From the IMG/VR virus record IMGVR_UViG_3300023063_000002, positions 12,415 to 76,414 of that record: 64,000 nucleotides of DNA. One strand, written 5' to 3'. Origin of the DNA: a virus. Each line of letters opens with the position of its first letter. Within the stretch, counting starts at the first letter, position 1. The position numbers and the translations under genes are program-made. The notes under the pieces were generated by a model. It was not told where the DNA came from. It worked only from the letters and a program-made list of their open reading frames with translations, and ran no database searches. Of this stretch, positions 4,165 through 64,000 are shown piece by piece.

Positions 4165-4784
4165 TATAAAGCCTCAATAAATTTAACAGAGCCTGGATCA
4201 GACATCACACCATCTGTATATTTAATACCAAGTACAGAAGAAGAGTCGTATCTTGCAGCCATTGTACAGTATTTACCGTATTTAATCAAATCACCAGCAT
4301 TTACATTTGTTCTGAGAGATGGTCTAATTTGAGCAGCGGATCCATCAGTAGTAATACCAACTACCAAGTACACTTTTGGATCATTACCAATATTGATAAA
4401 CTCACCTTTACCAACTCTTACAGAAGCATTACCCACCAAGGCGATTGCAGTGGAACCTCTTAGATTGTCAAGACCCAAAGATACTGTAGCTACATCAATT
4501 GGGTTTTTATTAATTCGATAAACTTGTGGCATACGAAGATACATCACTTGATGGTACCCACTACCTACTGAATGAATAAGTGCATTCTCAGAACTGTTGG
4601 TTGGCATCAAGTTAGCTTCTATTTCCCAGCGCTGTACATTCATCGAAGTTACAGTTTGTTTAAGAGAAGCTGCTTCAGATACAAATACAGGTTGATTTGA
4701 TATTACACTTAATGGTGTAGAAAATTCTACTGCGATCTCTGAATCAAGTCCAGAGTTTGTTGCAGATAACAAAATACCAGACAT
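4164..4784 (-). CDS. Distal tail / minor tail protein
   Basis: 206-aa beta-rich ORF directly downstream of the tape measure gene; assignment from synteny. Confidence 0.5.
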   Translation of the reverse strand: MSGILLSATNSGLDSEIAVEFSTPLSVISNQPVFVSEAASLKQTVTSMNVQRWEIEANLMPTNSSENALIHSVGSGYHQVMYLRMPQVYRINKNPIDVATVSLGLDNLRGSTAIALVGNASVRVGKGEFINIGNDPKVYLVVGITTDGSAAQIRPSLRTNVNAGDLIKYGKYCTMAARYDSSSVLGIKYTDGVMSDPGSVKFIEAL

Positions 4785-4983
4785 AATATTCCTTATTTAA
4801 TTTAAGATACCTATTTGGTAACTAATCTAAGATGAGCTCTCTAACAATCTAAAGAGCTCATGATGCATTAGTTAAATACACCGAGTGAAACTATACTACG
4901 TTACAGCAGCTACAGCAAGCAACTAGTATACGGTAAATATACTAGAAGAGATAGGATCACCTTCCTTTCAACAGTTAACTACA

Positions 4984-7900
4984 TTACGACGATTTACCAT
5001 TTTCATAATTATGTTGATTTACACCAGATGCAATTTGAGGGATCATTTTCTGAATCTCATAACGAGTCTGGCGAGAAATATCACCTGTGACACTGATATT
5101 AAAGGCTTGTTCAGATTTACCTGCACCGCCATGTAACAAAGCATTTTGTTGAGCAGCGTTAAGGATCACTTCACCACCGTGAGCCATAATTGGTTTAGGC
5201 ATACCACGAGCACCAGGGATAATACCACCGACAGCATAGCTACCAGTAGTCTTGATGCCATCCATCCAATCAAGATTGGTAAGTGCAGATGTACCAGAGC
5301 TAAGAGTACCAGCTGATACAGAGCTAAGCAAAGCATCGCTTGTAGCGGAAGAAGTAAAGCCACCACTACTTCCACTAAACAAGGAAAGACCAGTACTTAC
5401 CAGAGTGCCGAGCAAGCCACCCGAGCTACTGCCACCAGACACGCCCAAGACGCTAGCCAGGCCCTGCAAGGCGACACCCAGCGAGCCACCCATGGTCTTG
5501 ATACCCAAACTGAGCACGCTCCCCAGAGTGATGTTACTGGCTGACAGCGTGCCTCCCAGAGTGGTCACACCCATGCGCAGGGCAGTGGCATCGTACGTGG
5601 GATCACTCTTACCAGCGATCGCCATGCCGGAGGCGTCTAGGCCCGTTCCTGCACCACCGGGGAGCACTCCTGCGAGGGCATCAGGGGTTCCACCCAAGGC
5701 AGCGGTCAGAGCACGAGTGGCGGCAGTTGCATCAATAGTGGCAGACGTCAACAAGTCCTTCTCAGATTTCTGTGGATCAGCACCAAAGAGACCAGAAGCC
5801 ATATCAAAGATACCTGAAGTAAGGCTAGCAAGTGTTTTCTGAATAAACCCAGATTTACCTGTAATACCATTCATTAAACCACCTACAAAGCTATCAATGA
5901 TACCGTTAGTAAATGTATCAGCCAAGTGTGTCAAAGCTTGACGACCTGTCTCTTTACCTTTAAGAATTTCAGAGATACCATCACCGACATCTTGAGTGAT
6001 ATTTTGAGCGAAAGTAATACCGGCTTGATAAGCTGGGGAATCCTCTTTCTTCATTGTATACAAAGTAATTTCTCGACCAATCTTATCTTGAAGTTGATCA
6101 ATAGTAATTTGAGCAGTCATACGGGCTTGTTCACTAGCACCACCATCAGCCAAGATACCACGTTGCTTGGTAATACCATCAACATAGCCATCCAAGATTT
6201 TCTGACGAGTATCTGAGATAGTATTGTAAGCATCTTCAGTTATAGTAATACCAGCCTTATTCAGCTTATCAACACCTTTAGACTGAGTAGCGACAGCAAG
6301 ACCTTTTACAAGTGACTTACGCATATCAGTCAAGCTAGCCTCTGCAACCTTACGGGTAGCAGCATCCAAACCATCGAGTTGATCAGTCTGAGTAATAATT
6401 TTCTGAGCAATAGCTTCCAAATCAGGCCTGGAGGCAATCTTAGTTTGGCTATAATCAGTATCACTCACAGTCACACCAGCCTTAGTAAGGAGGTCAGAAC
6501 CACGCTTAGTAGAGTTACGAGTGGTAGTCATTTCCAGAGCAGCTTTGTTATTGGCTTTGATTGTATCCAATGCCTTCTTAGCTATTACAGGATCAGTACT
6601 ACGACTTTCATCCAACAACTCAGAGTAGTTACGAGTCTCTTGAGCAAGTTTGACCAAGGATACTCGCTGCTTATCTTGCATACGGCCCCATTCTTCTGGA
6701 GTGATCTTAGCATCAGTAAATTGAGCATTTACAAATGTTAATTGCTGACCATAATCCATACTAGACTCAGTCAATGCACGAAGCTGTTTAACAGCAACTT
6801 GATAAGAAACACCAAGTTTCTCAACTTGTTTACTGGAGAGATTCATGTCACTAGCTTGGCGTTGCATGATTGCAATCTGATCAGCAATCTTGGTATACTG
6901 GTCAACAGTACCAGAAGGTAGCTTCAGAGCACTTGTCAAATCAATATTAGCACCAGCGCTACTAATAGCAGACAGCTTATCACTAAACGATCGTGGGATA
7001 TACTTAGCAGAAGCTTCGTCACCTTGACGGCGAAGTTTAGCTTGCTCAGCACCAAGACTCTTTTGTGTGTCTAGGGAGATACCAGCAGGATCAGCTAATT
7101 GGTCATTAATCACTTTCATACGATCAGCATTAGCCAATTGTGATTTAAGAACATCAGCTGGAATCTTAGAGACTTGAGTAGAAGTGATACTGAAGTTAAC
7201 AGTAGCTAAACGTTCAAGGCTAGCTTGTGCAGTCTTAGATACAGGTGCAAGAGTAGTCAACTCATAACGAAGAGCAGCAATTTGTTTCTTAAATGCTTTA
7301 TACTTATCATCACTGATATTTGGATCAACTGTAGCATTGCTGATAGAGTCTTCAATGATTTTAAGCTGAGCTTCTTTAGCTTGGTACTCCTTAAGCTTGT
7401 CATCAGAACTGTAGGTAGCTACATCATCAGGTGTTTGAACACCCATACCTTTAAGCATGTTATTACGTTGATAGCTAGAGGTGCCAGCAGCAAACGCTTT
7501 CTCAATAAAGACACGATTAATGTCATCTGCACCTTTAGCGATTTCAGCTTTAACGCCAGCCATCATTGATGCAATACGAGTCTTCTCATCTGAAGTCATA
7601 TCATCACGAATGATGTACTCTTTCAGATTAAGTTTAGCTTTATTCTTTTCCAATGCTTGAGCCATGTATGCCAGCTGAAGATTGAAGGTTGGAGACAAAG
7701 AAGAAAGACTTTTAGCATCAAATGTAACACCAGCCTTATCGAAGGATTTAGTAGCCAAAGCATCTGGATTCAAAGTATTCATATCAGCACCTTGACGCTG
7801 ATCTAAAACAAGACTACTCTTAGCATCACGGACAGAAAGGAAATTAGCCAAAGCACCAGCCGCATCTTTAGTACGTTTACTAGCATTAACAAGCTGCTCA

Positions 7901-16902: not shown

Positions 16903-18084
16903 TTACGAGTGGAAGATTGGCAGAATACCCAGGCCCAGAGCCGAGTTAGTCTTACGTTCCCACGTACCGGTCGTGGTAGTACCAACAGTAGCATTGATCA
17001 GCAGTTCTGGAACACCACCCGTTACCGAGTTCATGTAGTCAGCATCCGAAGGGAATTTCTGATCCGAACCTTTCCAGTTGTAACCACTAGGGTGAGCAAC
17101 ATAACCCCAACGATACCAGATATTCGTAGAACCACCACCATTGTACGTATTACCAATGCGGGTGATTTCCGTTGGCGTTTCAACCGACAGGTTTTCCAGA
17201 GCGATCGAACCTGGCAGAACCAAGAACGACGTTTTCGAACCAACGATATCAATACCGGCACCGGTGTTAATCTTAGCCAGCTGAGCCGACGAGAAACCTT
17301 GCGATGCACGCGTCATGATCAGACGGAACTTACCACCGAAGATCGTCTCGAACGAGATATTAGCTTCCGACACTTTATCCTGATCAATCAGGTTAGCCGA
17401 ACGCAGCGACATCAGGGTTTGTGGCGAGACAACCAGATACGTGAACTCAGGCTCATAGTCTTTCCAACCCATACCCAGAGCTTGCAGGAAGCCTTCAGCA
17501 CGAGCAGCACCTTGAACAGCAGCCGTAGCAGCAACCACTGGCGTGTTAGCACCCAGGTCAACATAGAAACCATATGCTTTGTCCGTAGGGTCATTGTCAA
17601 ACGTTTGACCACCTTTACCAGCAACCGTAGTGCTCGAACCATTAGCAGCACCTTGCAGAGCTTCGGTAATGGCAACACCCTTCATGACTGCCAGGATAGC
17701 ATTGTGTTCGTCTTGAGCACGAGTCTCAGCAAAGTCACGACCAACTTTACCCAGACCATCATCTTGCGTGATGATTTGTTGCAGGTTAACTTTTTCAGCA
17801 CCATGCGTACGAACAGTCTTCACATAGTTAGCGAATTCCGAGCCATACGTGGTTGGGGTACCAGCCGTAGCATCAGTCAGCGATGCAACGTTGATAATTG
17901 GATTCAGAGGTTTGAACCAACGCATTTGACCAATGAAGGTCTCCGTGCTGACATCAATTTTAGCGTCAGTACCAACGATACCGGTACCCGACAGTTTCTT
18001 AGCATTCGTATACGCTTCATCGGCGTAGGCCGTAATAGAAGCTTGCAAGAGATAATTACTTGCGCCTGCTGGGGAAGTCAACAT
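16903..18084 (-). CDS. Major capsid protein
   Basis: 393 aa following a coiled-coil scaffold gene; strong high-expression codon bias; HK97-type size and context. Confidence 0.8.
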   Translation of the reverse strand: MLTSPAGASNYLLQASITAYADEAYTNAKKLSGTGIVGTDAKIDVSTETFIGQMRWFKPLNPIINVASLTDATAGTPTTYGSEFANYVKTVRTHGAEKVNLQQIITQDDGLGKVGRDFAETRAQDEHNAILAVMKGVAITEALQGAANGSSTTVAGKGGQTFDNDPTDKAYGFYVDLGANTPVVAATAAVQGAARAEGFLQALGMGWKDYEPEFTYLVVSPQTLMSLRSANLIDQDKVSEANISFETIFGGKFRLIMTRASQGFSSAQLAKINTGAGIDIVGSKTSFLVLPGSIALENLSVETPTEITRIGNTYNGGGSTNIWYRWGYVAHPSGYNWKGSDQKFPSDADYMNSVTGGVPELLINATVGTTTTGTWERKTNSALGLGILPIFHS

Positions 18085-18103: not shown

Positions 18104-18799
18104 TTACGTCTTACGTTTGGGGAGTTTACCCTCAGCCGCCATCTTGAGAACTTCAGCTTGGGTTAGTTTAAACAGAGATTTGCCATCGTTACCACTAGCA
18201 ACACCTTCTGCTTCTTTACTACCACCACCACTATTTGATTTAGCCTTGAGCAAGAACGAGTTCTGTTCATCTTTAGCATAAGCTGCTGCAAACTCTTTAA
18301 TCGAGATACCAGTGCGATGCAGCCAATCACCTTTATCATTACGTACAAGTTGACTAGTTACTTCACGATGAGCCATGTCAGACGCAGTACTATTACGGAA
18401 TGTAAATTCTTTGAGTGCGTCACGCACGGAAACATCACGGCTTAGTTCCGTGTTTTTCGCTTCAAGGGAGTCACGTTCAGCTTTAAGTTTAGCCTTGTCT
18501 TCTTCCTGCTCGGTAATCTTCAATTCATACAATGCTTTGTAGTCGTTAGCTTCTTCAAGCTTCTTTTTCTCAGCATCACGTTTTTCTTGTTTCAGAGTCT
18601 CAGCATCCTTGAGCGCAGCATCACGACTAGCGTAAGCAGCATCCAATTTGTCTTTAATCCCTTTGAGATTTTCATCAACCTTAGCTTGAACTAGCTTTGC
18701 AAGCATCTCCGAATCTTGTTCTTCTTTAGTCTTTTGAATTTCGACTTCAGTAGCTGTAACGATTGGATTGCCATCTGCATCAAGTTGTGGAGTAGTCAT
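18104..18799 (-). CDS. Capsid scaffolding protein
   Basis: Charged coiled-coil (EKKKLEEANDYKALYE) with SGGG linker near the C-terminus; precedes the capsid gene. Confidence 0.72.
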   Translation of the reverse strand: MTTPQLDADGNPIVTATEVEIQKTKEEQDSEMLAKLVQAKVDENLKGIKDKLDAAYASRDAALKDAETLKQEKRDAEKKKLEEANDYKALYELKITEQEEDKAKLKAERDSLEAKNTELSRDVSVRDALKEFTFRNSTASDMAHREVTSQLVRNDKGDWLHRTGISIKEFAAAYAKDEQNSFLLKAKSNSGGGSKEAEGVASGNDGKSLFKLTQAEVLKMAAEGKLPKRKT

Positions 18800-18876: not shown

Positions 18877-21800
18877 TTAGCCAATACCATACCAGTATCT
18901 ATTTTCTTTAAATCCAGTTGGGATTGGCGCAAGAATTTGTTCTTTTGTTAGTATATCATCTTTAGTTAAGAGTTTACCACCAACTCTTGATCGTCCTACC
19001 ACAGGTATTAGGCCAATGTCCTTAGCTTCATTCAGATACTTATTGTAGATCTCTTTCGGGAGACCACGATTAAGCATTTCAGTAAGTGTAGACTCGATTG
19101 GGCTAGTCTCAACTAAATCACCATAGATACCACGAAGGGCAGTTCTGGCTGTTAACATGTCAGCTGCATTTGTAAAGAATGCATCATGAATTGTAGATGT
19201 CGGGATATTGTTTGCAAGACCCCATTGATGAAACTTTTTAACGATCACTGCATCATTAGAGTGATTGCCATTAACTGCGAATGCTGTCCTAGCCTTTTGA
19301 GCATCAACAATATCATTCATAGTACCAGCTTCATTAAGCAACTCTTCCCAGAAAGTGGGATCAGTTTTCTGAGGTGCTTGGATAATGTTAGTAATCCATT
19401 TACCTTCAGCATTCTTATAAGTAAGCTTTTCCTCAAACACTTGAGTAAAGTTTTGTTCAATGATTTTACCATCGAAGTTAACCCAAGGAATGTTAGTCCA
19501 AAGCCTAGGCTGCTCTACCTTACGAACACCATACAGAATATCCGTCAGAGTGCTGTTAGGATTGAAACCTGGAACTCTATTAACGATGTCAGGAATAGCT
19601 TGTCGCTCAGCAAGTAGTTTAGTCTTGATGATGTCCGTGATAGAAGTTCTACTATTACTAGGTTTAGCATTTGTGACAAAGTCTTCTGCTAGTCGTCCAA
19701 AGAACTTAGTGAAGTCTTTAAGAATAGGCACTTGTGTAGCCAAGTTCTCGCTCATGATATTAGCAATAGTAGAGAAGTCTTGTGGCGTAACAATGTTAGT
19801 GTAATTCCTAGAAAGCTTCTCAACTAAGTCTCTAGTCTTTGGTTCAAGGAAGTAAAGTTGTGTAAGTATATCATCACCAGGATCTTGACCCTTGTTAAAT
19901 ATATCTCTCACATCTTGACGAAGAGTACGCAATTGATCAAACATATCAGGATCAATCTTCTGGTATCGAGCCATACGAGCACTAATTTCATTTAGTACTT
20001 TGTCTCGATCAGAAGCCTTAACAACGAGTGTTCCAGTATCTTTACCAAGTACTTTAGCAAGCTTAGCCTCTACATTAAGAATACCAGTTTTATCTCCAGC
20101 ACCATAGAAGGTAACCATATTCTGAGCCTTAGCAGCCTTCCTCAAATCCTTCTCAGATAGACCTAACTTTTGGTTAAGTTCAATAAATCGAGGATCATTA
20201 AAAGTAGCTGCTGCAATCTCATCATACAATCGCTGTTTCTGATTAGTAGCTACAACATTGCTTAGTTCACCAAGTTGTTTATTCTTAGTAGTTAAAGCAA
20301 TGATCTGTGCACCAGAGGAAGAAGCATCCTGCTCAAGAGCTACTGCTATGTCATAATCTTTTAAACGCTGTATACTAGCTGCAGAGTAATCACCACCAAG
20401 ATACTCATCGATCTTAGACATCTCGATTGCAAACCGCATTGCTTTACCTTGCTCTTCGCCGTCGATCAAAGCCATAAATTCTGACTCTAATACTTTACGA
20501 ATATCATTAGGTTTAGCTCTACGCATCTGATAACCAATTGTCACTAGCTCATTACGCCATTCTTCAGCAATCTTTTGACGACCAAGAACAGCTAATGAGT
20601 TATGTCGACCTTCCAAAGCATCAGTTAAGCCACCTAGGAAGGCGCCGATCTGATCTTGTAAATTAGCATACCCATCAGCACTAAATTTGCGGGTTTCAGC
20701 AGTATTAAGGAATGGCCTGAAGGTTTCACCTGATTGTGGACTAATCATTCCACGATCATAAACACGAGCACGGTGGTCAACGAAGGCTGCATTAGAGAAT
20801 GCTGTTTCATCATCACGTAACCACTTCATAGCCTTAAATCGCTCATAAGCATCACCACGTTCTGTGATATAGCTACGATACTGATTGAGGCCATGGTAGA
20901 ATGCTGCATTACCTTTATCATCCTCGAAGTTCATTAACTTGACAATGAAGTCATGAAAATCTGGATCAACTTTATACTTAGTTTGTGAAGCCCAATTTAA
21001 TGCATCTGCTAAGCTGTCATCTACTAGAGCGTCTGGGAAATCCCCAAAAGAGTTTGTAGATGTTATTGGGATACGGGTATCAGAGTAGCCCAGTAATCCT
21101 TTTGTATGGTACGTCTTGTATCCCGGTCTAATATATAATCTATTGCGTTCTGTAGAGACTCCAAGTCGCAAACCGACATCGACTTTCCGGGTAAGCTGAG
21201 AGTACTCTTGAATTCGGGGGTCAACGATTCTAAGATTGACAGAAGTAGTGTCATAGTATGGTCCAAAATAAGCATTTGATAAACGGCTCTTCATACGGCG
21301 TTTCTGAACAGTGAAGGATTCGATATTATAGAAGCCCTTCTTATCAGCCGTATCAAGCATTTTAAGACCTAGTTGATACCACTCGTTGCGTGAGCCACGA
21401 TAATTTGCAGAATTGAATAAATCGCGACCGAGACTGATCGCCAGCTGATCACGATCAGGAGTATCAGATAGGGACAAACGATTAGCAAATCGTAAGTAGA
21501 AGGCCTGTAACTGTTCATCATCTAGACGTGTTCGTATTTTAAATGGAATTGATAAATCCAAAAAGCCACGAAGTTCTTTAGCAATCTTAGGTGCTACCTT
21601 ATCTTCCCACGCATTCTTAGCATTAATATTGTCAATGAAACTATCTGACAGGTCTTGCAATTGTACTGTACCTAGTACCGGGTCAATATAGTTATCTTGT
21701 TTAAGCCTGAGCAACAAGTTACCATCTTTACGAAGCTGTGTTTCCATGTAATCTGATACGTTCATAACATCGAACTTAATCTGGCCATTTACAACAGCTT

Positions 21801-23346
21801 TGAAATTGCCCCAAGGTTCTTTATTATCCCTAAAACGACCAAAGATAATACGCAGATTATCAGAAATAACTGCTTGTTCATTTGTGCCCACATAGCCAAA
21901 CATTCCATTAACAAAGTTTTCGATGAACTCTTTATCTTGTGGCTTAAGCAATGCTGATTCACGTACTTGTCTAAGATTGTTCTCTAGTGTCTCAGCAGAT
22001 GGCTGGTACATTCGAGCATCTTCATAGCGACCAGTTAAAGGATTAAACTTTAGATTCTCTTCTTTAGGTGGACTAGACAATACACGTACTTTAGTAGCTT
22101 TCTTATTACCTAGCAGAGTACCACGATAATTAGTCAGTGACAGGTTACCATCGAGATCGCCATTCTGTAGAATATAGTATTCACGGAGATTAGCTTGAAA
22201 GGTTTTATTGTCAATCAAATCCTCTGGACGATTAACACCTAACTGAATGGCATCCATCTTCTCTTTAGCATTAGCAAAACGAATTGTATCACCAGGTGCT
22301 GTAAAGGAATTAGCTGTTAACTGTCGAAGCTCTTTAATACCAATTGAGTTACCTGCATCATTGGTAAAACCTGAGAGTTCTAGTTGACCAGTACGGAAAG
22401 CTTCAAGACGATTAAAATCACCAAGATGCCTTAACTGTACTTCACTCGTTTGTCTCATCAACCATTGCTGATATGACTCTTTAAGTGGTGTTTGACCATC
22501 ATAAAATGCTTGCTGCTTCAAAGACAGATTAGCAAGATTCTTTTTACGTACTTGAGCTACACCCTCTAGTTTAGCAAGATCTTGCCAAGCATAAACAACC
22601 GGCACGGTAGTAGAGCGGCAGTTCCAGTGAGCAGGAGGGAGGTGAGTAGTATCACTAATAGGATAAACTGTGCCATCGCGGTGTGCACAGAGCGGAGTAG
22701 TACGGGAGTCCAATACAGCAACGTATTGCCACCCTTGTAGAGCCTTTTCATTTGCCTTGTAAACCTCATGGTCTGTCTGGACCACAACGCTAGTCATAGC
22801 AGTTCTTACCAATCCCAACGATTGTGTTCTAGATATGTTAAAAACATTTCCTTTACGAACATTCAATGCTATCTGGGCTTCTGTGTCACCATCTGCAATA
22901 CCCTTACGAATAACACCTTCTAACCGCTTTCTCTCAGCGATTGAAACACTTTGCCAACCTTGTAACAAAGTCATGTCATTGTACAGAGGACGGTTTAACG
23001 CAATGTCTTCTGCGATACGGTATTGCGGTTTACTAACACTCCAGATTTTCCCAATAGCATTGTCGAGGTTTTGGACCATGTAGGAAGTTTGATCAAAGAT
23101 GAGATCCATCAATGATCGTTTAGACATGTCATGAAGCTTACCATAGTTCTTTACTAAGAGGTTGTCTAGCTCTTCAGCAAATTGTGGTGACTTCACTTTG
23201 GACTCTGCAATAAGTTTCATTACATCAACATTATTGCCATCCATGATACTATTTATTTTACCGCCGACCCGTTCCTCGTAATACCTTATCATCGCAGCGC
23301 GATCAACAGATTTATCGAAGATGGTCGTGTTAGCATTATCCGCCAT
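18877..23346 (-). CDS. MuF/SPP1-gp7-type head morphogenesis domain fused to a T7-like single-subunit RNA polymerase (putative virion RNAP)
   Basis: N-terminus: GWQYVAVLDSRTTPLCAHRDG...PPAHWNCRST (Mu F signature). C-terminus: VDHRARVY, motif A EQDASSSGAQII, motif B RKAAKAQNMVTFYGAG, AVNGNHSNDA, motif C TIHDAF. Confidence 0.9.
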   Translation of the reverse strand: MADNANTTIFDKSVDRAAMIRYYEERVGGKINSIMDGNNVDVMKLIAESKVKSPQFAEELDNLLVKNYGKLHDMSKRSLMDLIFDQTSYMVQNLDNAIGKIWSVSKPQYRIAEDIALNRPLYNDMTLLQGWQSVSIAERKRLEGVIRKGIADGDTEAQIALNVRKGNVFNISRTQSLGLVRTAMTSVVVQTDHEVYKANEKALQGWQYVAVLDSRTTPLCAHRDGTVYPISDTTHLPPAHWNCRSTTVPVVYAWQDLAKLEGVAQVRKKNLANLSLKQQAFYDGQTPLKESYQQWLMRQTSEVQLRHLGDFNRLEAFRTGQLELSGFTNDAGNSIGIKELRQLTANSFTAPGDTIRFANAKEKMDAIQLGVNRPEDLIDNKTFQANLREYYILQNGDLDGNLSLTNYRGTLLGNKKATKVRVLSSPPKEENLKFNPLTGRYEDARMYQPSAETLENNLRQVRESALLKPQDKEFIENFVNGMFGYVGTNEQAVISDNLRIIFGRFRDNKEPWGNFKAVVNGQIKFDVMNVSDYMETQLRKDGNLLLRLKQDNYIDPVLGTVQLQDLSDSFIDNINAKNAWEDKVAPKIAKELRGFLDLSIPFKIRTRLDDEQLQAFYLRFANRLSLSDTPDRDQLAISLGRDLFNSANYRGSRNEWYQLGLKMLDTADKKGFYNIESFTVQKRRMKSRLSNAYFGPYYDTTSVNLRIVDPRIQEYSQLTRKVDVGLRLGVSTERNRLYIRPGYKTYHTKGLLGYSDTRIPITSTNSFGDFPDALVDDSLADALNWASQTKYKVDPDFHDFIVKLMNFEDDKGNAAFYHGLNQYRSYITERGDAYERFKAMKWLRDDETAFSNAAFVDHRARVYDRGMISPQSGETFRPFLNTAETRKFSADGYANLQDQIGAFLGGLTDALEGRHNSLAVLGRQKIAEEWRNELVTIGYQMRRAKPNDIRKVLESEFMALIDGEEQGKAMRFAIEMSKIDEYLGGDYSAASIQRLKDYDIAVALEQDASSSGAQIIALTTKNKQLGELSNVVATNQKQRLYDEIAAATFNDPRFIELNQKLGLSEKDLRKAAKAQNMVTFYGAGDKTGILNVEAKLAKVLGKDTGTLVVKASDRDKVLNEISARMARYQKIDPDMFDQLRTLRQDVRDIFNKGQDPGDDILTQLYFLEPKTRDLVEKLSRNYTNIVTPQDFSTIANIMSENLATQVPILKDFTKFFGRLAEDFVTNAKPSNSRTSITDIIKTKLLAERQAIPDIVNRVPGFNPNSTLTDILYGVRKVEQPRLWTNIPWVNFDGKIIEQNFTQVFEEKLTYKNAEGKWITNIIQAPQKTDPTFWEELLNEAGTMNDIVDAQKARTAFAVNGNHSNDAVIVKKFHQWGLANNIPTSTIHDAFFTNAADMLTARTALRGIYGDLVETSPIESTLTEMLNRGLPKEIYNKYLNEAKDIGLIPVVGRSRVGGKLLTKDDILTKEQILAPIPTGFKENRYWYGIG

Positions 23347-23363: not shown

Positions 23364-23816
23364 TTATTTAACTTTAACAGGTTTAGATTCTTTTGATTTC
23401 TTCTTGTCAGCTTTTACTGCGGCTGTTAGTGAGTCTTCAGTATACTTCTTGTAAGCGTAGAAGGCATTGGTGCAGAGATTCTGAATAGAATAAGCTTCAA
23501 ACTCATCAGATGGTTTATCCTCACCTACATATTCTTTGTAATTCTGGAATGCATGAACCATTTCGTGTACTAGCAATGCATATACATCTTGGATAGGCCA
23601 CTTTAAAGTCTTCTTGTGGTTTACACAGACAATATTGTATTCTTTACCCTTACCATTATGGAATGAGTGTACACAAGCATCACCATTTTCACCAAGCCAG
23701 TTAATTACTACCTTGATCTTTAAACGTTTAAGTTCTTCAAGATAATCTTTCTCAGTAAAGGCAAAACTAAGATAGATTGGATTATAGACCAAAGCATTGC
23801 CCACATGATAAATCAT
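23364..23816 (-). CDS. Putative zincin-like metalloprotein (HExxH)
   Basis: ALLVHEMVHAFQ followed by EFEAY, resembling an HExxH...E zinc site. Confidence 0.45.
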   Translation of the reverse strand: MIYHVGNALVYNPIYLSFAFTEKDYLEELKRLKIKVVINWLGENGDACVHSFHNGKGKEYNIVCVNHKKTLKWPIQDVYALLVHEMVHAFQNYKEYVGEDKPSDEFEAYSIQNLCTNAFYAYKKYTEDSLTAAVKADKKKSKESKPVKVK

Positions 23817-23902: not shown

Positions 23903-25582
23903 TTACGGTGCTACTTTCTTTACTGGTGCAGCAGGACCAGCTTTAGCAGGTGGCACGCTATTAGGGTCTGGTTGCCCAGTCTTCATACCGGCTACTTGTG
24001 TTTGGAGCTTAGCAGCGAACTGCATTTCTTCACGAGGCTTAACAATAAGCTGATCGCTATTAATAGCTGCTTGACCTTCTTTGTCATCGTAGTCAGAGCT
24101 AATCATATCATTCTGCTTAATGATTGACAACCATACTTCACGAGGGATGAGACCTGACTGATACCATTCAGTAGCAAGACGAAGCCAATCAGCACCAAGA
24201 GGGGCAGGATTGAAGTCAGCAGACAAACAGAATTTAATATCTTCAGATTTATACTTCAAGTCATAGCGCCAGTTAAGCATGAAGGCAATAATATCAGCCA
24301 TCTGATTACTAATCTTAGTATTGAGAGTACCCAATTGTGCAGTCTGAGCAGCATTACGAATCTCAAGAGCTACGCCTGACTGAATTGTCTCAGGTGACAG
24401 CATACGAATGCCCATACGAGCCATTTCATCAATGGTGGCTAGGATAGCACGATCCATATCAGCAAGAGCAGCAGTAGGTGTTTCCACAACCTTGATCTCA
24501 TCACCTTGTTTAACACGAAGCCAGGAGCCTAGACCGCTATCAACAATCTTGTCGAAGTCATCTTCAGCCATATCGCTAGCTACATAAGGAGTATAAGTAC
24601 TAGCACCATACAGCAAATGATTACGACGACTAACCTTGTTATAAAGGCTAATCTCACGATCAATTAATGCAGTGAGGATCGGCTCAAGTGGCTTAACAGA
24701 TCCGTTGAGTGGCCATGCTGGGATAAAATCAAGAGGTTCACCGTTGCACTCAATATTATCAATAGTTTTAATAAGTTCAAAACCAGCTGAAGAATCTTGG
24801 TAATTCTGTTGGATCGATCCATTAATAATCGAAGCAGAAGCCGTTGGAGTCTTGTTTTGAAATACCCTGATTTGGTAGACATCATCAACAATCTCATGTA
24901 CGCGAACAGTATCCATGAGCGATGGGTGGAATTCTCCAGGTACATACGTTTCTTCATAGCCTCGAACAATAATCATGTTGAGCTTTTGGGAGCCATCTTT
25001 GCTACTAACACCCATGCGCCAGTTAACAATAGACTCAGCATTCCACATTACTGGATAAGGCTTCAAGTCAGCGAAGTCTTGTGTAGTCATCGATGATTTA
25101 TCATCATCACTAACAAATGGATAATCTACATATACCCAAGCACGGCTAGTCTGCATTTCTTCCCAAAGGCCACTATCTAGAAAGTTAACTAGTGGTGAGC
25201 CATCTTGAGCAAAGTGATTCATGATCCAATCATGAGCATCAGCAGGTGCATCTTTAGGTAGCTCTAGTGTGGGCTGCTTACGTAGCAATCCACCAACAAT
25301 AATCTTAGCGTACTGTGATACAATCCCTGGCAACTCAGCTTCAGCACGATAGAAATCGTATTGTTCCTGAGTCATGGAAGGGCTAAATGGAATGAGCAAG
25401 TTAGTCATTCCGACTACATCTAGGATCGAGTCGTAAGCCTTAACAAAACGTTCGCCATTACACACTGCCCGACTCTTCAACCAAAGTGGTTGCATGGAAG
25501 TATAGCCAATGGTAGGATCTGCTACTGTCTTATTGCGCTCTGACCCTACTGAGTCTACTTCGGGCGTGGTAATTTTAATCAT
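23903..25582 (-). CDS. Portal protein (DUF4055-like)
   Basis: 559 aa between terminase and MuF; YDFYRAEAE, PYPVMWNAESIVNWR and ETIQSGVALEIR patterns of siphovirus portals. Confidence 0.8.
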   Translation of the reverse strand: MIKITTPEVDSVGSERNKTVADPTIGYTSMQPLWLKSRAVCNGERFVKAYDSILDVVGMTNLLIPFSPSMTQEQYDFYRAEAELPGIVSQYAKIIVGGLLRKQPTLELPKDAPADAHDWIMNHFAQDGSPLVNFLDSGLWEEMQTSRAWVYVDYPFVSDDDKSSMTTQDFADLKPYPVMWNAESIVNWRMGVSSKDGSQKLNMIIVRGYEETYVPGEFHPSLMDTVRVHEIVDDVYQIRVFQNKTPTASASIINGSIQQNYQDSSAGFELIKTIDNIECNGEPLDFIPAWPLNGSVKPLEPILTALIDREISLYNKVSRRNHLLYGASTYTPYVASDMAEDDFDKIVDSGLGSWLRVKQGDEIKVVETPTAALADMDRAILATIDEMARMGIRMLSPETIQSGVALEIRNAAQTAQLGTLNTKISNQMADIIAFMLNWRYDLKYKSEDIKFCLSADFNPAPLGADWLRLATEWYQSGLIPREVWLSIIKQNDMISSDYDDKEGQAAINSDQLIVKPREEMQFAAKLQTQVAGMKTGQPDPNSVPPAKAGPAAPVKKVAP

Positions 25583-25926: not shown

Positions 25927-25946
25927 GGGTTAAGTTAACGGGTTGG
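25927..25946 (-). promoter_or_regulatory. Putative phage RNAP promoter, copy upstream of the portal/head operon
   Basis: CCAACCCGTTAACTTAACCC, followed by the hairpin CGACT-GACA-AGTCG. Confidence 0.7.
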
Positions 25947-25963
25947 CAATCAATACAAAGTGG

Positions 25964-27292
25964 TCAGAAGCGCTTGCTCTTACGTACTTTGACGCTAGCA
26001 TGGGTGATAGGGAATAAGTATTCCATTGGATATCTTACACCATCAGAGAAGTGTTCAACGCCTTCTTTCTTATCAATCGTAGCAGTATCACTAGATGTAG
26101 TTGCCCAAGAAGTTCGCTCAAGTGACTGAATGAGACCTGCACAACGAGGGTGAATATACATATCAACAATCCCTGACGCAGTCTTGAGCTTCTTATTAAC
26201 AGCTGCTACTGAATCAACAATTGGTGGAGCTTTCATGTGAGCCCTAGTAATCAGACCATGCTTCTCAAGAATAGTAAAGTCAGTAACACCTACTGTAGCA
26301 GATGTCTTTCTTGATCTACCTGACGGGTCAGGGTAAACATAAATCTTGTGTCCCTTAAACTTATCCTTGATTGCAATTGCGAGTGTCTCTGTATCGGGAT
26401 GTCCCTTGAATTCATCGATATAGTGTACTTGGCCACCTCTAAGACAGAATACGGAGGAGCACTGTAATCCAACGTTGAAGTCGATTCCAATATGGACGTC
26501 TTCATCGGTTTCCAAATCTGGGACATCTGACTGTACATGTACTTTTCGGTCGAAGCAATAAAATACTCCGTTGCTTGAGCCTTGGAAAGAAGCGAGATAC
26601 TCCCGAGCGAATTGTATTGGATCGATCGTGTGCTTAACCTTTTCAATCTCTTCTTCATCCAAGTAGGGAGAAGACGTATAATCGTAATGATACGATTTCC
26701 AATCCTTATCCATCTCTTGATAGTTGAACATGTCGTAGAGGAAGTCAAACCCCTTTGGAGTTGATATACATAGAGCTCTACCGGGAGATTTAGCGAATAA
26801 CTGTTTGGCACGTTTTCTACTCCAACGAGTGTTAATACAAGGCTGAATAATGGATTGCCAAGCTTCTTGGAAACCTGCACCCTTAGTCCAATCTCGGACT
26901 TCATCCATAACTACAAAGTAGGCACCTGTACCACGTAAGCGATCAACCGCCTCATATGATACGAGACGGAGTTCAACATTACGAGGAAACCAGAATCTAC
27001 CAAGATCTTTAGAGGATCTTAGAGCATAGGCATCTAATCCCAACTCATAGGCAAGCAATGGATAATAAATATCGGTCACTTGACTATAAGTAGGAGCAAT
27101 GATATAAACAATTTTATTAGGTACGACTGAGGCTAACTCTAGCAACTCAAATACAGCAGTCATAGCACATACAGCAGCAAAGTAAGACTTCCCCCAACCA
27201 CGGCTACAGACTGCTACAGCATACCTACATGTCTTCTCGACAAATAAGTCGTTATAGACCTCAGACTGGCCTGCATGGAGGACAATTGACAT
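25964..27292 (-). CDS. terL: Terminase large subunit
   Basis: Walker A CSRGWGKS, Walker B VVMDE, nuclease HIGIDFNV and HFSDGVRY. Confidence 0.92.
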   Translation of the reverse strand: MSIVLHAGQSEVYNDLFVEKTCRYAVAVCSRGWGKSYFAAVCAMTAVFELLELASVVPNKIVYIIAPTYSQVTDIYYPLLAYELGLDAYALRSSKDLGRFWFPRNVELRLVSYEAVDRLRGTGAYFVVMDEVRDWTKGAGFQEAWQSIIQPCINTRWSRKRAKQLFAKSPGRALCISTPKGFDFLYDMFNYQEMDKDWKSYHYDYTSSPYLDEEEIEKVKHTIDPIQFAREYLASFQGSSNGVFYCFDRKVHVQSDVPDLETDEDVHIGIDFNVGLQCSSVFCLRGGQVHYIDEFKGHPDTETLAIAIKDKFKGHKIYVYPDPSGRSRKTSATVGVTDFTILEKHGLITRAHMKAPPIVDSVAAVNKKLKTASGIVDMYIHPRCAGLIQSLERTSWATTSSDTATIDKKEGVEHFSDGVRYPMEYLFPITHASVKVRKSKRF

Positions 27293-39716: not shown

Positions 39717-39736
39717 GGGTTAAGTTAACGGGTTCG
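39717..39736 (-). promoter_or_regulatory. Putative phage RNAP promoter (tandem copy 2)
   Basis: CGAACCCGTTAACTTAACCC, whose last bases begin a CCCA-GTAA-TGGG hairpin. Confidence 0.68.
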
Positions 39737-39787: not shown

Positions 39788-39807
39788 GGGTTAATTTAAC
39801 GGGTTGG
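39788..39807 (-). promoter_or_regulatory. Putative phage RNAP promoter (tandem copy 1)
   Basis: CCAACCCGTTAAATTAACCC, whose last bases begin an ACCCT-GAAA-GGGT hairpin. Confidence 0.7.
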
Positions 39808-59784: not shown

Positions 59785-59804
59785 GGGTTAATTTAACGGG
59801 TTGG
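59785..59804 (-). promoter_or_regulatory. Putative phage RNAP promoter upstream of the replication genes
   Basis: CCAACCCGTTAAATTAACCC. Confidence 0.7.
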
Positions 59805-60800: not shown

Positions 60801-62315
60801 TTACGCAAATGCGTACTCACTGTCTAAAACCAATTTAAGATCCAATGTGCCAATCTCTACAGCACTCATATCACCACCCATCTCAGCAATCAAGTTCTCA
60901 AGAACTGGACCACTGTATAACTCTACAAATGTTTCCCGAACAACAGCATATAGCTCAGCCATATCACCAAGCAGACACCCAAAGGAATCATGAATAGTTG
61001 TAACAGGAAAGTCACAGCGGTTAATACATAGAGTAAGGTGAGCAGCGTCAAGGCTGTGGATAGCATTAGGACTGGCACCACTAGCTTGTTTCTTTGGAGA
61101 GTTTTGAAGATCCTCCATAAAACAAATGTGAAGTTGTCGTGTATTTTCATAGTAGCCTGTTTTAAGTTTCTCACCAACTGGTGGGCCATACTGGATGTAA
61201 GTCTTCTTTACAGTACCCTCCACATAATGTTGAACAACTGGAAAGTTAGTAACTGGAGTATGCCAAGATAGGAATTCATCTCGCTTCTCTGCCTTCTCAC
61301 CTGCATCTCTAAATACATCCAACAATTGCATTGGACGACGTAGTGATTCTTTACAGTCCTCAAAGATCATTCGACCCATATAAGCGCCCCAACCATGCTC
61401 CATGGACATCAATTGCTCAATACCATGTTTACGGGCATCATCAATAACTTGCTGACCGAGACCATACGAACTTCCACCATACGGCAACGTCATTACTCCA
61501 CGTTTACAAATCTTACGTTTCTGCTTACTATCTTTAATACGATACCAGTATACAACTGCTGAATCCTTAACTGCTTCTTTATTCTTTAGTTTGTAACTGA
61601 TAATCTCTTCAATTAGCTGTTTACGCAATTCAGACTTTTGAGGTGCATTATTAATCTGGTTTTTGTAATCTGTAATTGTATCGATTGTTACCTCAAGTTC
61701 TTTGATTATATTCTTATGTATGACACTGTACTCTTTACCCATTTTATGCCACACGTGATCTGCTACATACTTATACAAATCACCTGGCAAATCAAGAGGT
61801 ACTAGATTAACGTGTGGTGCTGTAATCTCATCCTTTGTTAATGCTGAAAGATGCTGTGATCCATTGTTGCTACCATCAATAAAGCATTCGAGATGACTCT
61901 CATAATCAATATCTTTAAACTTAAAGTTAAGACCTGAAGTATAACCGCCTGTTACTTTCCATGTTTCTAGTTTAAACCACTCATTACAAGCTGCTAAGAA
62001 TTGCCAAGGCTTATCTGCCTTCATCCAACCCTGATTGATCTTTGGGCTATCAGCATACGACAGTAGAATTTCCTTGTTATCCAGAGCCCAATGTACACGA
62101 TCATTCAATGGTATTTTATCAGTCTTTTGATTGTCTTCCCTACCAGCATCGCCTGCCCAATTTGATGCGATTGATATGAGTAGCCAGAAAAACCCTTGCT
62201 CTCCAATGCGTTTCTTATCGGCTCGTAGAAGCATTCCCTTGGATACATCAGTGCCTTGTTCATGGAAGTAAGCACTTGAAGGATATTTCCGTCCTCTGAA
62301 ATCGTAGTAATAGAG
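60801..62315 (-). CDS. T7-like RNA polymerase, exon 2
   Basis: YYDFRGRKY, motif A DGSNNGSQH, motif B RKICKRGVMTLPYG, PNAIHSLDA, motif C TIHDSFG. Confidence 0.93.
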   Translation of the reverse strand, partial: LYYYDFRGRKYPSSAYFHEQGTDVSKGMLLRADKKRIGEQGFFWLLISIASNWAGDAGREDNQKTDKIPLNDRVHWALDNKEILLSYADSPKINQGWMKADKPWQFLAACNEWFKLETWKVTGGYTSGLNFKFKDIDYESHLECFIDGSNNGSQHLSALTKDEITAPHVNLVPLDLPGDLYKYVADHVWHKMGKEYSVIHKNIIKELEVTIDTITDYKNQINNAPQKSELRKQLIEEIISYKLKNKEAVKDSAVVYWYRIKDSKQKRKICKRGVMTLPYGGSSYGLGQQVIDDARKHGIEQLMSMEHGWGAYMGRMIFEDCKESLRRPMQLLDVFRDAGEKAEKRDEFLSWHTPVTNFPVVQHYVEGTVKKTYIQYGPPVGEKLKTGYYENTRQLHICFMEDLQNSPKKQASGASPNAIHSLDAAHLTLCINRCDFPVTTIHDSFGCLLGDMAELYAVVRETFVELYSGPVLENLIAEMGGDMSAVEIGTLDLKLVLDSEYAFA

Positions 62316-63126
62316 CATGTTTGTTCAGTATACTTCGCGAGGGTATACCCGTATGTGTAGGCTCTCGACAGCCTAAATTGTAACTTGAGACCAATTACGG
62401 CCAGTTCGAATACAGTTGATGGTACCCTTATGCACATTAAATTTTTCAGCAATAGTTTTGTTAGTCTCCCCATCTAAGAACATTTGTTTGATAATTTTAA
62501 CTTCTGCCTCAACTAACTTAGTGTTTAAAGAAAATTCCTTAATCATAAGCCCAGCTTTAGTTGCATGCTCCACGTTAAATGCTTGAGTACACCACTCTAG
62601 ATTTGAATATTTATTATTTAGCTTATTAGTATCCTTGTGATTCACCTTAGGTAGGTTTAAGGGGTTTTCTAAGAATGTTCTTGCAACTAAAACATGCACA
62701 CGTTCTGTTTTGTTATGGCCATTAATACAGATTTGAATTTGCATATACCCATTTCCGTTATCATACTGTTTTAAAGTTCGGCCTTCTTTTAAATATTCAC
62801 CACCATGCGTGCTCCTAACCATACGAGTCATACTTCTAACTTGGCCCATATTTGAAACTTCATAAAAACTGTTATATTGCTTCCAAATTTCCATATTTGT
62901 CTTTCTAAGTAAATTGTCGAGATTTACACATACTGCTATATGTTGCCATATAAGTTCAGACTATATCATGCGTATAAACAACCGCCTTTGCGCTTCCACT
63001 CGCTTGAGTGTACTCCCTCCCGGGATAGTCGTTGCACCTTCAAGAACACTAGTGTTCAAGCTTGGCTCAGGGTTGGCCACATGGGCTGTTCTCTGAATTC
63101 ACAAAGTTTTACTATCACCAATATTA
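62316..63126 (-). ncRNA. Group I self-splicing intron (811 nt) interrupting the RNA polymerase gene
   Basis: 5' exon ends in U (CAT) and the intron ends in G. P1: exon CTATCAT pairs with GTGATAG (63112-63118) through a U.G pair. Core elements: P GAATTCAGAGAA (63089-63100), Q AACCCTGAGCCAAG (63061-63074), R GTGCAACGACTATCC (63023-63037), S ATGATATAGTCTG (62957-62969). Splicing restores FYH-LYYYDFRGR. Confidence 0.9.
62373..62894 (-). CDS. Intron-encoded NUMOD4-HNH homing endonuclease
   Basis: EIWK...YEVSNMGQVRS (NUMOD4), VNHKDTNKLNN..SNLEWCT...N..HA (HNH), C-terminal HTH. Confidence 0.88.
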   Translation of the reverse strand: MEIWKQYNSFYEVSNMGQVRSMTRMVRSTHGGEYLKEGRTLKQYDNGNGYMQIQICINGHNKTERVHVLVARTFLENPLNLPKVNHKDTNKLNNKYSNLEWCTQAFNVEHATKAGLMIKEFSLNTKLVEAEVKIIKQMFLDGETNKTIAEKFNVHKGTINCIRTGRNWSQVTI

Positions 63127-63951
63127 ATGATAGAACGTTTCATCAAGAAAGCGCTTAGCAATAGATCCGACCGTCCTTGCTTCCCGTAGCTTCGAGGATT
63201 TAGCCTCAGGGTTTTGCATGTCCCAAATGTCTGCAAAGGCTTCGGCTTTGTTGCGTAGGGCCCACGTGAAGATCGGGTAAATATCCTTATTAACATTCCA
63301 ACCAGTGCGCTGGGCTTTGTTAAGGCATTCAAAGACAAGTGGGTGTGTTTGTATTGTGAGCTCATTCAGTACTCCCCTGTTTTGAGTCTTAACCATTACA
63401 GATCCACAGCTATGCTTAGTGGTTGTCCAAGGCTCATATGGTACAAGAGATGGCAGCTTCTCAATCTTGTTAATCACTACAGAAGCAAACAACTCATCTA
63501 GTGCTTCCTCATCAATTGTCTCTACAAGGAATGTTGCATGCTTACCATTACCCTTACCGAGATACGTTTTAACAATACCATATTTCTCAAATGACCAAAG
63601 AAGAAATGCACCACTTTTAGCTGCTAGTGAGGAGTCTTTTTTGAGCTTAGCTCTACTACGAATAGAATGGCCAATACCAGAAATAATCTCTGCCATAAAT
63701 GGTAATGATTTACTCTTCCTGGAGAAGCTACCACCACCTCGTGTGAATGTATGTAGGATCAATGTTACGGCGTCTACTAAATCTGAAGGTCCCATACTCT
63801 GCATAAACTTCACAGGATTACGTGGGCTTACCTCATTTTCAAGACGGTCTGTGATAGAAGCAATTAATTTTTGTTTCATTGTTTCCAAGGTGTATCCTAG
63901 TCTATTTAAATTCCTGCCATGATACGGGGTATTAGCTTGATAAAGTTCCAT
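63127..63951 (-). CDS. T7-like RNA polymerase, exon 1 (spliced product about 779 aa)
   Basis: N-terminal RNAP region (P..PWT, LNKAQRTGWNVN) ending at TFYH, followed by the in-frame TAA of the intron. Confidence 0.88.
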
Positions 63952-64000
63952 CCAATAAAAATTAGAAAGAGACTCATCATAGCTTAATTCCTTTAATTTG

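Follow-up and report, generated by a model that had tools for sequence, protein, structure and literature searches.

A single gene of a long-tailed phage from leaf litter encodes a minor head protein of the MuF type joined to a complete, apparently active RNA polymerase (RNAP) of the T7 type, which, judged from the genes, makes it probable that this phage carries a transcription enzyme inside its capsid. The same probably holds for hundreds of uncultured relatives and for the cultured marine Naomviridae. No published description of a MuF-RNAP fusion was found (Iyer 2017, Jamet 2017, Rihtman 2021), and Jamet 2017 (PMC5576092) does not use the term "RNA polymerase" (0 occurrences). The window analysed is a stretch of 64,000 nucleotides of the virus record IMGVR_UViG_3300023063_000002; its features are collected in Table 1.

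Table 1. Position of the fusion gene, its parts and related features in the window
Feature	Position (nt)	Strand	Residues (aa)	Remarks
MuF-RNAP fusion gene	18877..23346	-	1489 in total	GGAGG ribosome-binding site 10 nt upstream
MuF / SPP1-gp7 head-morphogenesis domain	22312..23346	-	1-345	Pfam PF04233, TIGR01641, PHROG 241
MuF core GWQYVAVLDSRTTPLC...PPAHWNCRS	22606-22734	-	205-247	
Connector	21667..22311	-	346-560	mostly helical, family-conserved
Complete T7-type single-subunit RNAP module	18880..21666	-	561-1489	N-terminal domain, thumb, palm, fingers, specificity-loop hairpin
DHRARVY	20758..20778	-	857-863	counterpart of T7 D421-x-R423-G-R425-x-Y427 (HMM alignment to T7)
Motif A, EQDASSSG	20311..20334	-	1005-1012	D1007 counterpart of T7 catalytic D537
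Motif B / O-helix, RKAAKAQNMVTFYG	20101..20142	-	1069-1082	spacing as in T7
NGNHSNDA	19249-19272	-		ahead of motif C; counterpart of T7 N781-D787
Motif C, TIHDAF	19177..19194	-	1385-1390	H1387, D1388 counterparts of T7 H811, D812
Major capsid protein	16903-18084	-		PHROG match (PHROG 206 and 247 cover scaffold and major capsid protein)
Scaffold	18104-18799	-		PHROG match (as above)
150-aa ORF between portal and fusion	23364-23816	-	150	
Portal protein	23903..25582	-	559	PHROG 145 (E 1e-50), DUF4055
Phage-promoter-like repeat CCAACCCGTTAAmTTAAC (18-20 bp)	25929..25946	-		heads portal/head operon including fusion gene
TerL	25964-27292	-		
Second, canonical T7-like RNAP gene	60801..63951	-		exons 63124-63951 and 60801-62318
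NUMOD4 endonuclease ORF in second-RNAP intron	62373-62894			

The fusion protein has a mass of 168 kDa. Its reading frame is confined to the minus strand; read on the plus strand, the same positions show stops throughout and no open frame. The possibility of an assembly chimera at the join, raised in the earlier note, was rejected, since an identical protein was called on three contigs, which may share one leaf-litter sample, and more than 500 homologs contain both domains. The MuF signature described in that note for the first ~350 residues was confirmed, and the quoted strings were located. Pfam Phage_Mu_F (PF04233) matched residues 142-247 (E 3.4e-16, 60.4 bits, curated cut-off 29.6), TIGR01641 phageSPP1_gp7 matched with E 3.4e-16 and 59.6 bits (cut-off 39.65), and PHROG 241 (head morphogenesis) covered residues 1-362 (E 1e-54). 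With model matches above threshold and a gene slot after the portal, the fusion falls into the MuF / SPP1 gp7 family. Residues D213, C220, P237, P238, H240, C243, R244 and S245 were invariant in 22 full-length relatives. In the AlphaFold2 (AF2) model, pLDDT was mostly >85 up to residue 345, followed by a low-confidence hinge at residues 347-355. The MuF domain is presumed to dock on the portal protein; a complex prediction of the portal with residues 1-345 scored 0.20, against a mark of 0.34. The connector was confidently folded (model residues 1-201), lay outside every RNAP alignment and was 29-58% identical among family members. It had no match in the Atlas, and no resemblance outside the family was found.

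All catalytic motifs of single-subunit RNAPs that the earlier note had listed (DHRARVY, motifs A, B and C) were present at the coordinates checked. In motif B, R1069, K1073, Y1081 and G1082 are spaced like R627, K631, Y639 and G640 of T7, and the tyrosine for rNTP selection is invariant. RNA_pol (PF00940) matched residues 1330-1436 (E 3.5e-9, 36.4 bits, cut-off 22), phrog_414 (RNA polymerase) matched the fusion with E 5e-19, and the family profile found T7 RNAP with E 4e-23 in four collinear blocks. The AF2 model (pLDDT 86.6, pTM 0.80), a comparison with T7 RNAP that the earlier note had suggested, spans the whole T7 fold, with N-terminal domain, thumb, palm and fingers all present. R861, D1007, K1070, K1073, Y1081, G1082, D1365 and D1388 were invariant in all 22 full-length relatives, the most distant of which share 21% identity, whereas R1069, D857 and R859 were invariant in a closer 15-member set and not in the 22-member alignment. 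By this measure the module retains the residues on which catalysis and the choice of rNTPs depend. Conservation within the fusion was highest in the polymerase domain (34%) and lowest in the N-terminal, promoter-binding domain (23%), a pattern that diversifying promoter specificity would predict. One might still take the module for an inactive relic, mere bulk or a DNA-binding internal head protein, and the low Pfam RNA_pol score (36 bits) could be quoted to this end, although it reflects the divergence of the family and nothing specific points this way. The invariance of catalytic and rNTP-selecting residues, the position of the polymerase domain as the most conserved region, the complete T7 fold of the model and a homing HNH intron inserted exactly in motif B of the fusion gene of EBPR siphovirus 1 make such a relic very improbable.

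A profile search and a homolog survey had been suggested in the earlier note: both Pfam domains scored above their curated cut-offs, and the homologs are ~1500 residues long, on contigs of up to 155 kb. Among diverse members MuF was found in 22 of 22, and the Pfam RNA_pol threshold was reached in 18 of the 22. Some hits lacking MuF are proteins truncated at a contig edge, as was P0106, the one checked. The fusion family turned up in one MAG among 185,579 species genomes, so that it is viral and not prophage-borne. From these comparisons, the architecture is conserved across a clade of ~60-80 kb siphophages with a T7 replication module; this clade is large, deep and strictly viral and includes EBPR siphovirus 1 and the Naomviridae roseophages DSS3_VP1/PM1. 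In these phages the fusion is annotated solely as a head protein, and the DSS3_VP1 papers do not mention an RNA polymerase.

On the minus strand the genes follow the order TerL, a small ORF, portal, 150-aa ORF, fusion, scaffold, major capsid protein and tape measure protein (2876 residues). The earlier note had described a single ORF between portal and scaffold: the ORF and the adjoining scaffold stood, but the 150-aa ORF, which it did not mention, separates the portal from the fusion. The order is portal, tRNA, fusion in DSS3_VP1 and gp46 (portal), then gp47 (fusion) in EBPR siphovirus 1. The scan of head-module ORFs detected no prohead protease, and the contig is circularly closed at a poly-T tract. 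The fusion gene belongs to the late head operon, downstream of a candidate phage-type promoter; neither a promoter nor a terminator specific to this gene was found. This location would also suit a polymerase that works undelivered in the producing cell, as a late RNAP tethered by MuF to the portal or procapsid, or released from it, which boosts late transcription or couples it to packaging while MuF does its usual head job. The 150-aa protein directly upstream is zincin-like (HExxH), and cleavage of the fusion by it is conceivable, but its gene is not a conserved neighbour of the fusion gene. Moreover, a dedicated T7-like RNAP is already present, with its presumed promoters heading the late units, a soluble late RNAP would have no reason to keep a portal-docking fusion across a clade diverged to 21% identity, and other MuF fusions are read as head-delivered cargo. 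We consider a role confined to the producing cell unlikely.

The second, intron-split RNAP reported in the earlier note was recovered with both exons and its intron ORF (PF00940, E 4e-64; phrog_414, E 1e-100). BLASTP aligned it with the fusion at motifs A and C only, and its identity to the DSS3_VP1 RNAP was 35%. In the window, in DSS3_VP1 and in 4/4 IMG/VR relatives tested (86-100% complete), the fusion was accompanied by a separate canonical T7-like RNAP. The promoter-like repeat occurs in the window in five copies, where 0.07 were expected, all in coding orientation and all downstream of the T7-like RNAP gene; on the circular map the repeat is missing from the tail, lysis and pre-RNAP block. 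In DSS3_VP1, a T7-type consensus of its own occurs 13 times and never at 35.7-45.9 kb, where the small-gene block and the RNAP gene lie. Since in both phages the repeats begin only downstream of the T7-like RNAP gene, the early block appears to be left for another polymerase. The pre-RNAP block of the window contained one sigma-70-like site, compared with 8.2 +/- 3.4 in shuffles, and none was found upstream of the T7-like RNAP gene; as evidence, this scarcity is weak. In DSS3_VP1, a duplicated element heading the early block contains a perfect TATAAT, and host RNAP may therefore start early transcription there.

That TATAAT would fit a fusion which is packaged and ejected but serves mainly to internalise the genome by transcription, or to supply replication primers or R-loops, while host RNAP makes the early mRNAs. 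T7 RNAP both internalises DNA and primes replication, and transcription by the virion RNAP (vRNAP) likewise internalises the first part of N4 DNA. The packaging evidence is shared by this explanation, which is hard to separate from the one we prefer, as a transcription motor needs promoters and would yield early RNAs anyway. The low number of sigma-70-like sites in the pre-RNAP block and their lack ahead of the T7-like RNAP gene speak against it, and we hold it to be quite unlikely.

The explanation that we prefer, and consider rather likely, is a virion-packaged, MuF-tethered RNAP that is ejected together with the DNA and reads the early block, feeding a relay to the second RNAP. The fusion protein would be made late, from the head operon, and after packaging would be located at the portal, adjoining the DNA. 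On infection it would exit through portal and tail along with the DNA and transcribe the early block, which lacks T7-type repeats and holds the T7-like RNAP gene. The second RNAP would then read the 18-20 bp repeats heading the replication, terminase and head-tail units and in this way supply the next generation with the fusion protein. The outcome would be an N4-like relay of two T7-type enzymes in a long-tailed phage, with host RNAP possibly dispensable. Such a MuF tag and two-RNAP cascade had been proposed in the earlier note; the late head operon, the repeat-free RNAP block and sigma-70-like sites that are not enriched agree with it, whereas packaging, ejection and early transcription by the fusion are steps that we infer. 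Passage of a 168-kDa protein through a siphovirus tail would be needed, a point against this explanation. To our knowledge, protein ejection has precedents solely in other morphotypes (N4 gp50, T7 gp16).

Capsid-delivered RNAPs are textbook examples of host-independent takeover and are known to us from few lineages, namely N4-like podophages, crAss-like phages and phiKZ/AR9 jumbo phages. If our explanation is true, long-tailed phages came by the capsid-borne strategy anew, through a simple domain fusion, and the concept of MuF cargo takes in, besides toxins, the transcription machinery of the phage itself. The "head morphogenesis protein" of 1460-1560 aa that hundreds of genome annotations list would then have an explanation, and there would be a T7-like polymerase family that is compact (about 930 aa), presumably promoter-specific and diverse in its specificities, and that might serve as a source of orthogonal transcription tools. 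Both DSS3_VP1/PM1 and the host of these phages, Ruegeria pomeroyi DSS-3, are cultured, which opens the idea to direct testing. A wider proposal has, in our view, a little less than an even chance: a large, global lytic long-tailed clade (soil, sludge, freshwater, marine), with the cultured Naomviridae among its members, would deliver a portal-tethered T7-type RNAP via MuF, and two RNAPs would run the whole programme without host RNAP. This would be the third independent solution after the N4-type and two-barrel-type enzymes, the first in siphophages and the first MuF with a core information-processing enzyme.

The closest parallels to the carrier are MuF toxins and polyvalent proteins (Jamet 2017, PMC5576092; Iyer 2017, PMC5512222), which share the N-terminal PF04233, the slot after the portal and an enzymatic C-terminal domain proposed for head-to-host delivery. 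Gp7 attaches to the portal, and 1-2 copies of it are directed to the inside of the procapsid; delivery to the host was proposed for the C-terminal toxin domains of MuF proteins (PMC5576092, PMC6316719, PMC5512222). The described cargoes, however, are toxins and host-modifying enzymes (ADP-ribosyltransferases, nucleases, peptidases) of mostly temperate phages, whereas the fusion described here belongs to a lytic clade and has a polymerase of 930 aa as its cargo. Compared with T7 RNAP and mitochondrial RNAPs, the fusion polymerase is only 12-17% identical. Its N-terminal domain is about 70 residues shorter, it ends in WYGIG instead of FAFA, and it stands behind 560 residues of MuF and connector in the head operon, not in the early region, in genomes that hold a true T7-like RNAP orthologue elsewhere.

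Membership in the N4 vRNAP clade (Schitoviridae gp50 type) was rejected, as the family profile misses N4 vRNAP and matches T7 RNAP. N4-like RNAPs almost always carry a zincin metallopeptidase (Iyer et al., PMC5512222), whereas the fusion has MuF and RNA_pol domains only. It is also shorter than N4 vRNAP (1489 versus about 3500 residues) and has an N-terminal MuF as carrier, in place of the N- and C-terminal injection/encapsidation regions of the N4 enzyme. Unlike the podophage N4, whose late genes are read by host RNAP, the phage described here is long-tailed and appears to have phage promoters at its late units. The crAss-like gp66 and the virion multisubunit RNAPs of phiKZ/AR9 are capsid-delivered and provide host-independent early transcription. 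The concept of a capsid-delivered enzyme, for the fusion a proposal, is common to them and the fusion, but they are two-barrel RNAPs of unrelated folds with other carriers and morphotypes. AR9/PBS-type phages have dU-DNA, as does DSS3_VP1; homologues of the DSS3_VP1 dU-synthesis genes were not detectable in the window phage, so that the fusion is not tied to dU-DNA.

The open reading frame that the earlier note had described as a minor head protein (MuF) fused to a T7-type RNA polymerase (RNAP) is real and lies on the minus strand; a plus-strand reading was rejected, stops being found throughout. All sequence strings quoted in that note were found and their coordinates recomputed (see table). 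Both domains were also recovered by profile search: Pfam placed Phage_Mu_F at aa 142-247 (E 3.4e-16) and RNA_pol PF00940 at aa 1330-1436 (E 3.5e-9) of the fusion, each over the curated cut-off. In PHROGs, aa 1-362 corresponded to head morphogenesis phrog_241 (E 1e-54) and RNA polymerase phrog_414 was matched as well; in NCBIfam, the protein matched phageSPP1_gp7. The gene is placed in the late operon, where the minus-strand order is large terminase, portal, a 150-aa ORF, fusion, scaffold, major capsid protein, head-tail genes and a 2876-aa tape measure protein. Its ribosome-binding site is GGAGG, and no promoter- or terminator-like site belonging to the gene itself was seen.

Coordinates of the features discussed, in window positions unless another record is named
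Feature	Location	Strand	Remarks
Fusion gene (P0001)	18877-23346	-	1489 aa
MuF core	aa 205-247 of fusion
DHRARVY	aa 857-863 of fusion
EQDASSSG	aa 1005-1012 of fusion
RKAAKAQNMVTFYG	aa 1069-1082 of fusion
TIHDAF	aa 1385-1390 of fusion
ORF between portal and fusion (P0271)	23364-23816	-	150 aa, phrog_882, function unknown
T7-like RNAP gene	60801-63951	-
NUMOD4 endonuclease ORF	62373-62894
Repeat CCAACCCGTTAAmTTAAC	25929-25946, 30991-31008, 39719-39736, 39790-39807, 59787-59804	-
Repeat TAGTArTTAAACAG	14 sites within 31696-55086	-	two more in the pre-RNAP block, L094 24142 and 24605
Identical 29-nt GAAA-loop elements	L094 24632-24660, 24834-24862 (= L095 4776-4804, 4978-5006)		outside the window
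Poly-T contig ends	L095 5985-6060; L008 1-31		about 170 nt past window position 64000
EBPR siphovirus 1 fusion gene, HNH-bearing interruption in motif B	L002 9204-10124		gene pieces annotated gp47, gp48, gp49
DSS3_VP1 duplicated 27-bp element	35795, 36242
DSS3_VP1 large terminase	4390-6410

Modeled with AlphaFold2 from a 35-sequence alignment, aa 360-1489 gave a mean pLDDT of 86.6 and a pTM of 0.80, and in a Foldseek search with this model mitochondrial and T7 RNAPs ranked first (E about 1e-19). Single-protein phmmer against PDB sequences gave no match. The family profile matched T7 RNAP sequences (E 4e-23) in four collinear blocks, namely the N-terminal domain, the DxRGR region, motif A and the stretch from specificity loop to motif C, and it also matched mitochondrial RNAPs (1e-15) and N4 RNAPII (1e-6). 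N4 vRNAP was not matched by this profile. Model and profile matches together thus indicate a complete T7-type polymerase, nearer to T7 RNAP than to N4 vRNAP. In a second model, of aa 1-450 (pLDDT 82.6), a compact MuF domain extends to about aa 345, with low-confidence hinges at aa 347-355 and 400-410; Foldseek of this model against PDB returned nothing at E <= 0.001. The connector at aa 346-560 was modeled as confidently folded and mostly helical and lies outside every alignment. No usable match was obtained for aa 346-565 in an Atlas search, and the connector has no detectable relative.

The possibility that the join is an assembly chimera, raised in the earlier note, can be ruled out since it recurs in many independent homologues. 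Three contigs of 75-77 kb encode the identical protein, but these may share one leaf-litter metagenome sample and therefore carry little weight by themselves. A word-indexed search returned 518 homologues, and the best 120 of them were nearly all 1400-1600 aa long with both Pfam domains, on contigs of up to 155 kb. When 1.84 billion cluster representatives were searched exhaustively with HMMER, only 157 clusters were matched, about 25 of them full-length (1300-2073 aa, 24-61% identity), and in every one of these the polymerase part starts some 700 residues in. Phage_Mu_F was present in all 22 diverse full-length members and the RNA_pol threshold was reached in 18 of the 22; about 40 further full-length loci were found in IMG/VR. 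The architecture is thus kept across the family. MuF-less matches were considered as candidate stand-alone polymerases, but they include truncated proteins: P0106, the one that was checked, ends at a contig edge. Five close homologues (P0004, P0025, P0061, P0094 and P0111) are 1626-1765 aa long, 130-280 aa longer than the fusion. In the single case aligned, P0004, about 150 additional residues follow aa 984, just before motif A. This segment, tested as a possible intein, has neither a Pfam match nor an intein signature and is treated as a variable insertion. Among prokaryotes (one genome per species, 185,579 species, searched with a narrow family alignment), the family occurred in one MAG only, on a 74-kb contig that is evidently binned phage, and we consider it for this reason to be viral and not prophage-borne.

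In 22 members, with identities down to 21%, R861, D1007, K1070, K1073, Y1081, G1082, D1365 and D1388 of the polymerase are invariant, as are D213, C220, P237, P238, H240, C243, R244 and S245 of the MuF domain. The spacing of the polymerase residues is that of T7 R627-K631-Y639-G640, and the Tyr kept here is the ribonucleotide-selecting residue of T7 RNAP. In the diverse set the polymerase domain was the best-conserved region (34% mean identity) and the N-terminal domain, the promoter-binding part of T7 RNAP, the least conserved (23%). This pattern fits a working enzyme whose promoter specificity is diversifying.

Four GenBank phage records were found by tblastn to span the whole fusion protein: EBPR siphovirus 1 (JF412302, 55% identity) and, at 30% identity, the roseophages DSS3_PM1 and DSS3_VP1 (two records for the latter), which infect Ruegeria pomeroyi DSS-3, belong to the Naomviridae and have dU-DNA genomes; their fusion protein is on record as YP_010105321. 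In DSS3_VP1 (NC_055826), a 1463-aa gene annotated as 'head morphogenesis' only follows the portal and a tRNA and precedes a scaffold-like gene and the capsid gene. Synteny between this phage and the window phage extends over the early and middle region (T7-like RNAP, nucleotide kinase, DNA polymerase, exonuclease, GIY-YIG protein, primase-helicase and ribonucleotide reductase). Of the DSS3_VP1 ORFs in the 31-75 kb region, none apart from the shared replication and tail genes had a homologue detected in the window; the dCTP deaminase was among those missing. The fusion is thus not tied to dU-DNA, and such a link as a general rule is rejected by the window phage.

The second, split RNAP of the earlier note was likewise present in the window and is a canonical T7-like enzyme (PF00940, E 4e-64). 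It could be aligned with the fusion polymerase at motifs A and C only, which indicates that the latter is not a recent copy of it. DSS3_VP1 encodes both polymerase types, as does each of the four IMG/VR clade genomes with 86-100% completeness; in a fifth (73%), the fusion alone was detected.

The distribution of repeated elements bears on which polymerase reads which block. The 76.6-kb contig of the ENA assembly carries the same poly-T tract of at least 30 nt at either end, in one case after a 9-bp hairpin. The assembly therefore closes into a circle, which was broken at this homopolymer; the tract lies about 290 nt upstream of the T7-like RNAP gene. An 18-20 bp repeat, CCAACCCGTTAAmTTAAC, was counted five times against an expectation of 0.07, always in coding orientation and downstream of the T7-like RNAP gene, where the copies head replication, terminase and head units; the 25.9-kb copy heads the portal/head operon containing the fusion. 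On the full circular map it was missing from the tail and lysis blocks and from the pre-RNAP block, the stretch between lysis cassette and T7-like RNAP gene. It is likely a phage RNAP promoter, and was not conserved in the fetched loci of related phages. A second repeat, TAGTArTTAAACAG, strand-specific and intergenic (15 matches vs 1.9 expected), was restricted to the early and middle small-gene arrays, where its copies occupy the ends of genes, with a TAGAAAG-type ribosome-binding site following after 20-40 nt. It may mark a second class of promoters or, alternatively, sites of processing. The 29-nt elements (7-bp stem and GAAA loop, about -5 kcal/mol as DNA) were confined to the pre-RNAP block, each followed 25-45 nt downstream by a very small membrane-protein ORF, and are candidate promoters as well.

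In DSS3_VP1, a T7-type promoter consensus (ATAGG, three variable bases, CGTTAAAG; also given as ATAGGnnnCGTTAAAG) had 13 coding-strand copies, all outside the 35.7-45.9 kb block that holds small genes and the T7-like RNAP gene. In both phages, then, the block with the T7-like RNAP gene is without the promoters that its product would most plausibly read, and this block must be opened by another polymerase. Host RNAP may do so: just behind the late terminator, the DSS3_VP1 block starts with two copies of a 27-bp element that includes a perfect TATAAT. In the pre-RNAP block of the window phage, however, sigma-70-like sites were not enriched (1 vs 8.2 +/- 3.4 in shuffles), and none was seen upstream of the T7-like RNAP gene, a result that speaks only weakly against host RNAP.

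The other candidate is the fusion itself. SPP1 gp7 binds the portal, and one to two copies of it are directed into the interior of the procapsid; virions that lack it are only about 25% infectious, and delivery of MuF C-terminal domains to the host has been proposed (PMC5576092, PMC6316719, PMC5512222). From the observed architecture, conservation, late-operon placement, co-occurrence with a second RNAP and promoter geography, we infer a route in which the polymerase would be loaded at the portal by its MuF domain and would exit together with the DNA. It would then transcribe the early block and with it the gene for the T7-like RNAP, and this second enzyme would go on to serve the middle and late units. 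A predicted complex of the portal with MuF aa 1-345 scored 0.20 against a mark of 0.34, which weighs neither way on binding. The head-module ORFs scanned showed no prohead protease, and the fusion may for this reason stay intact. Cleavage is possible, given the hinge after aa 345 and the neighboring HExxH protein P0271, which is not conserved. This protein carries a zincin-like HEMVH motif and a downstream EFEAY. Iyer 2017 (PMC5512222) reports a fused zincin peptidase in nearly all N4 virion RNAPs; the zincin-like protein of the window phage is encoded by a separate gene. As a conserved processing partner it was rejected, since the sole other homologue among the fetched loci, in EBPR siphovirus 1, is at a different position.

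MuF fusions and virion RNAPs were both surveyed by Iyer et al. 2017 (PMC5512222), where no description of the present fusion was found. The term 'RNA polymerase' appears neither in the MuF toxin paper of Jamet et al. 2017 (PMC5576092) nor in the paper describing DSS3_VP1/PM1 nor in a 2025 paper on the dU pathway of DSS3_VP1, and a search of open-access papers and preprints for Naomviridae, Phage_Mu_F and virion RNAP gave no relevant literature. Capsid-borne RNAPs and MuF-cargo fusions are kinds already known, and the present fusion would be a variant of both.

GenBank lists the fusion gene of EBPR siphovirus 1 as three unrelated genes: gp47 ('head protein'), gp48 (an HNH endonuclease) and gp49 (hypothetical). 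The alignment of gp47 ends at ...KAAKAQNMV (aa 1078) and gp49 picks up downstream, which places an HNH-bearing insertion exactly inside motif B. Homing introns typically choose positions of this kind, their targets being those sites in functional genes that are under the strongest constraint. The T7-like RNAP gene of the window is split as well, by an insertion with a NUMOD4 endonuclease ORF, and homing elements target both polymerase genes in this clade. The large terminase of DSS3_VP1 is annotated in two pieces flanking an endonuclease VII gene.
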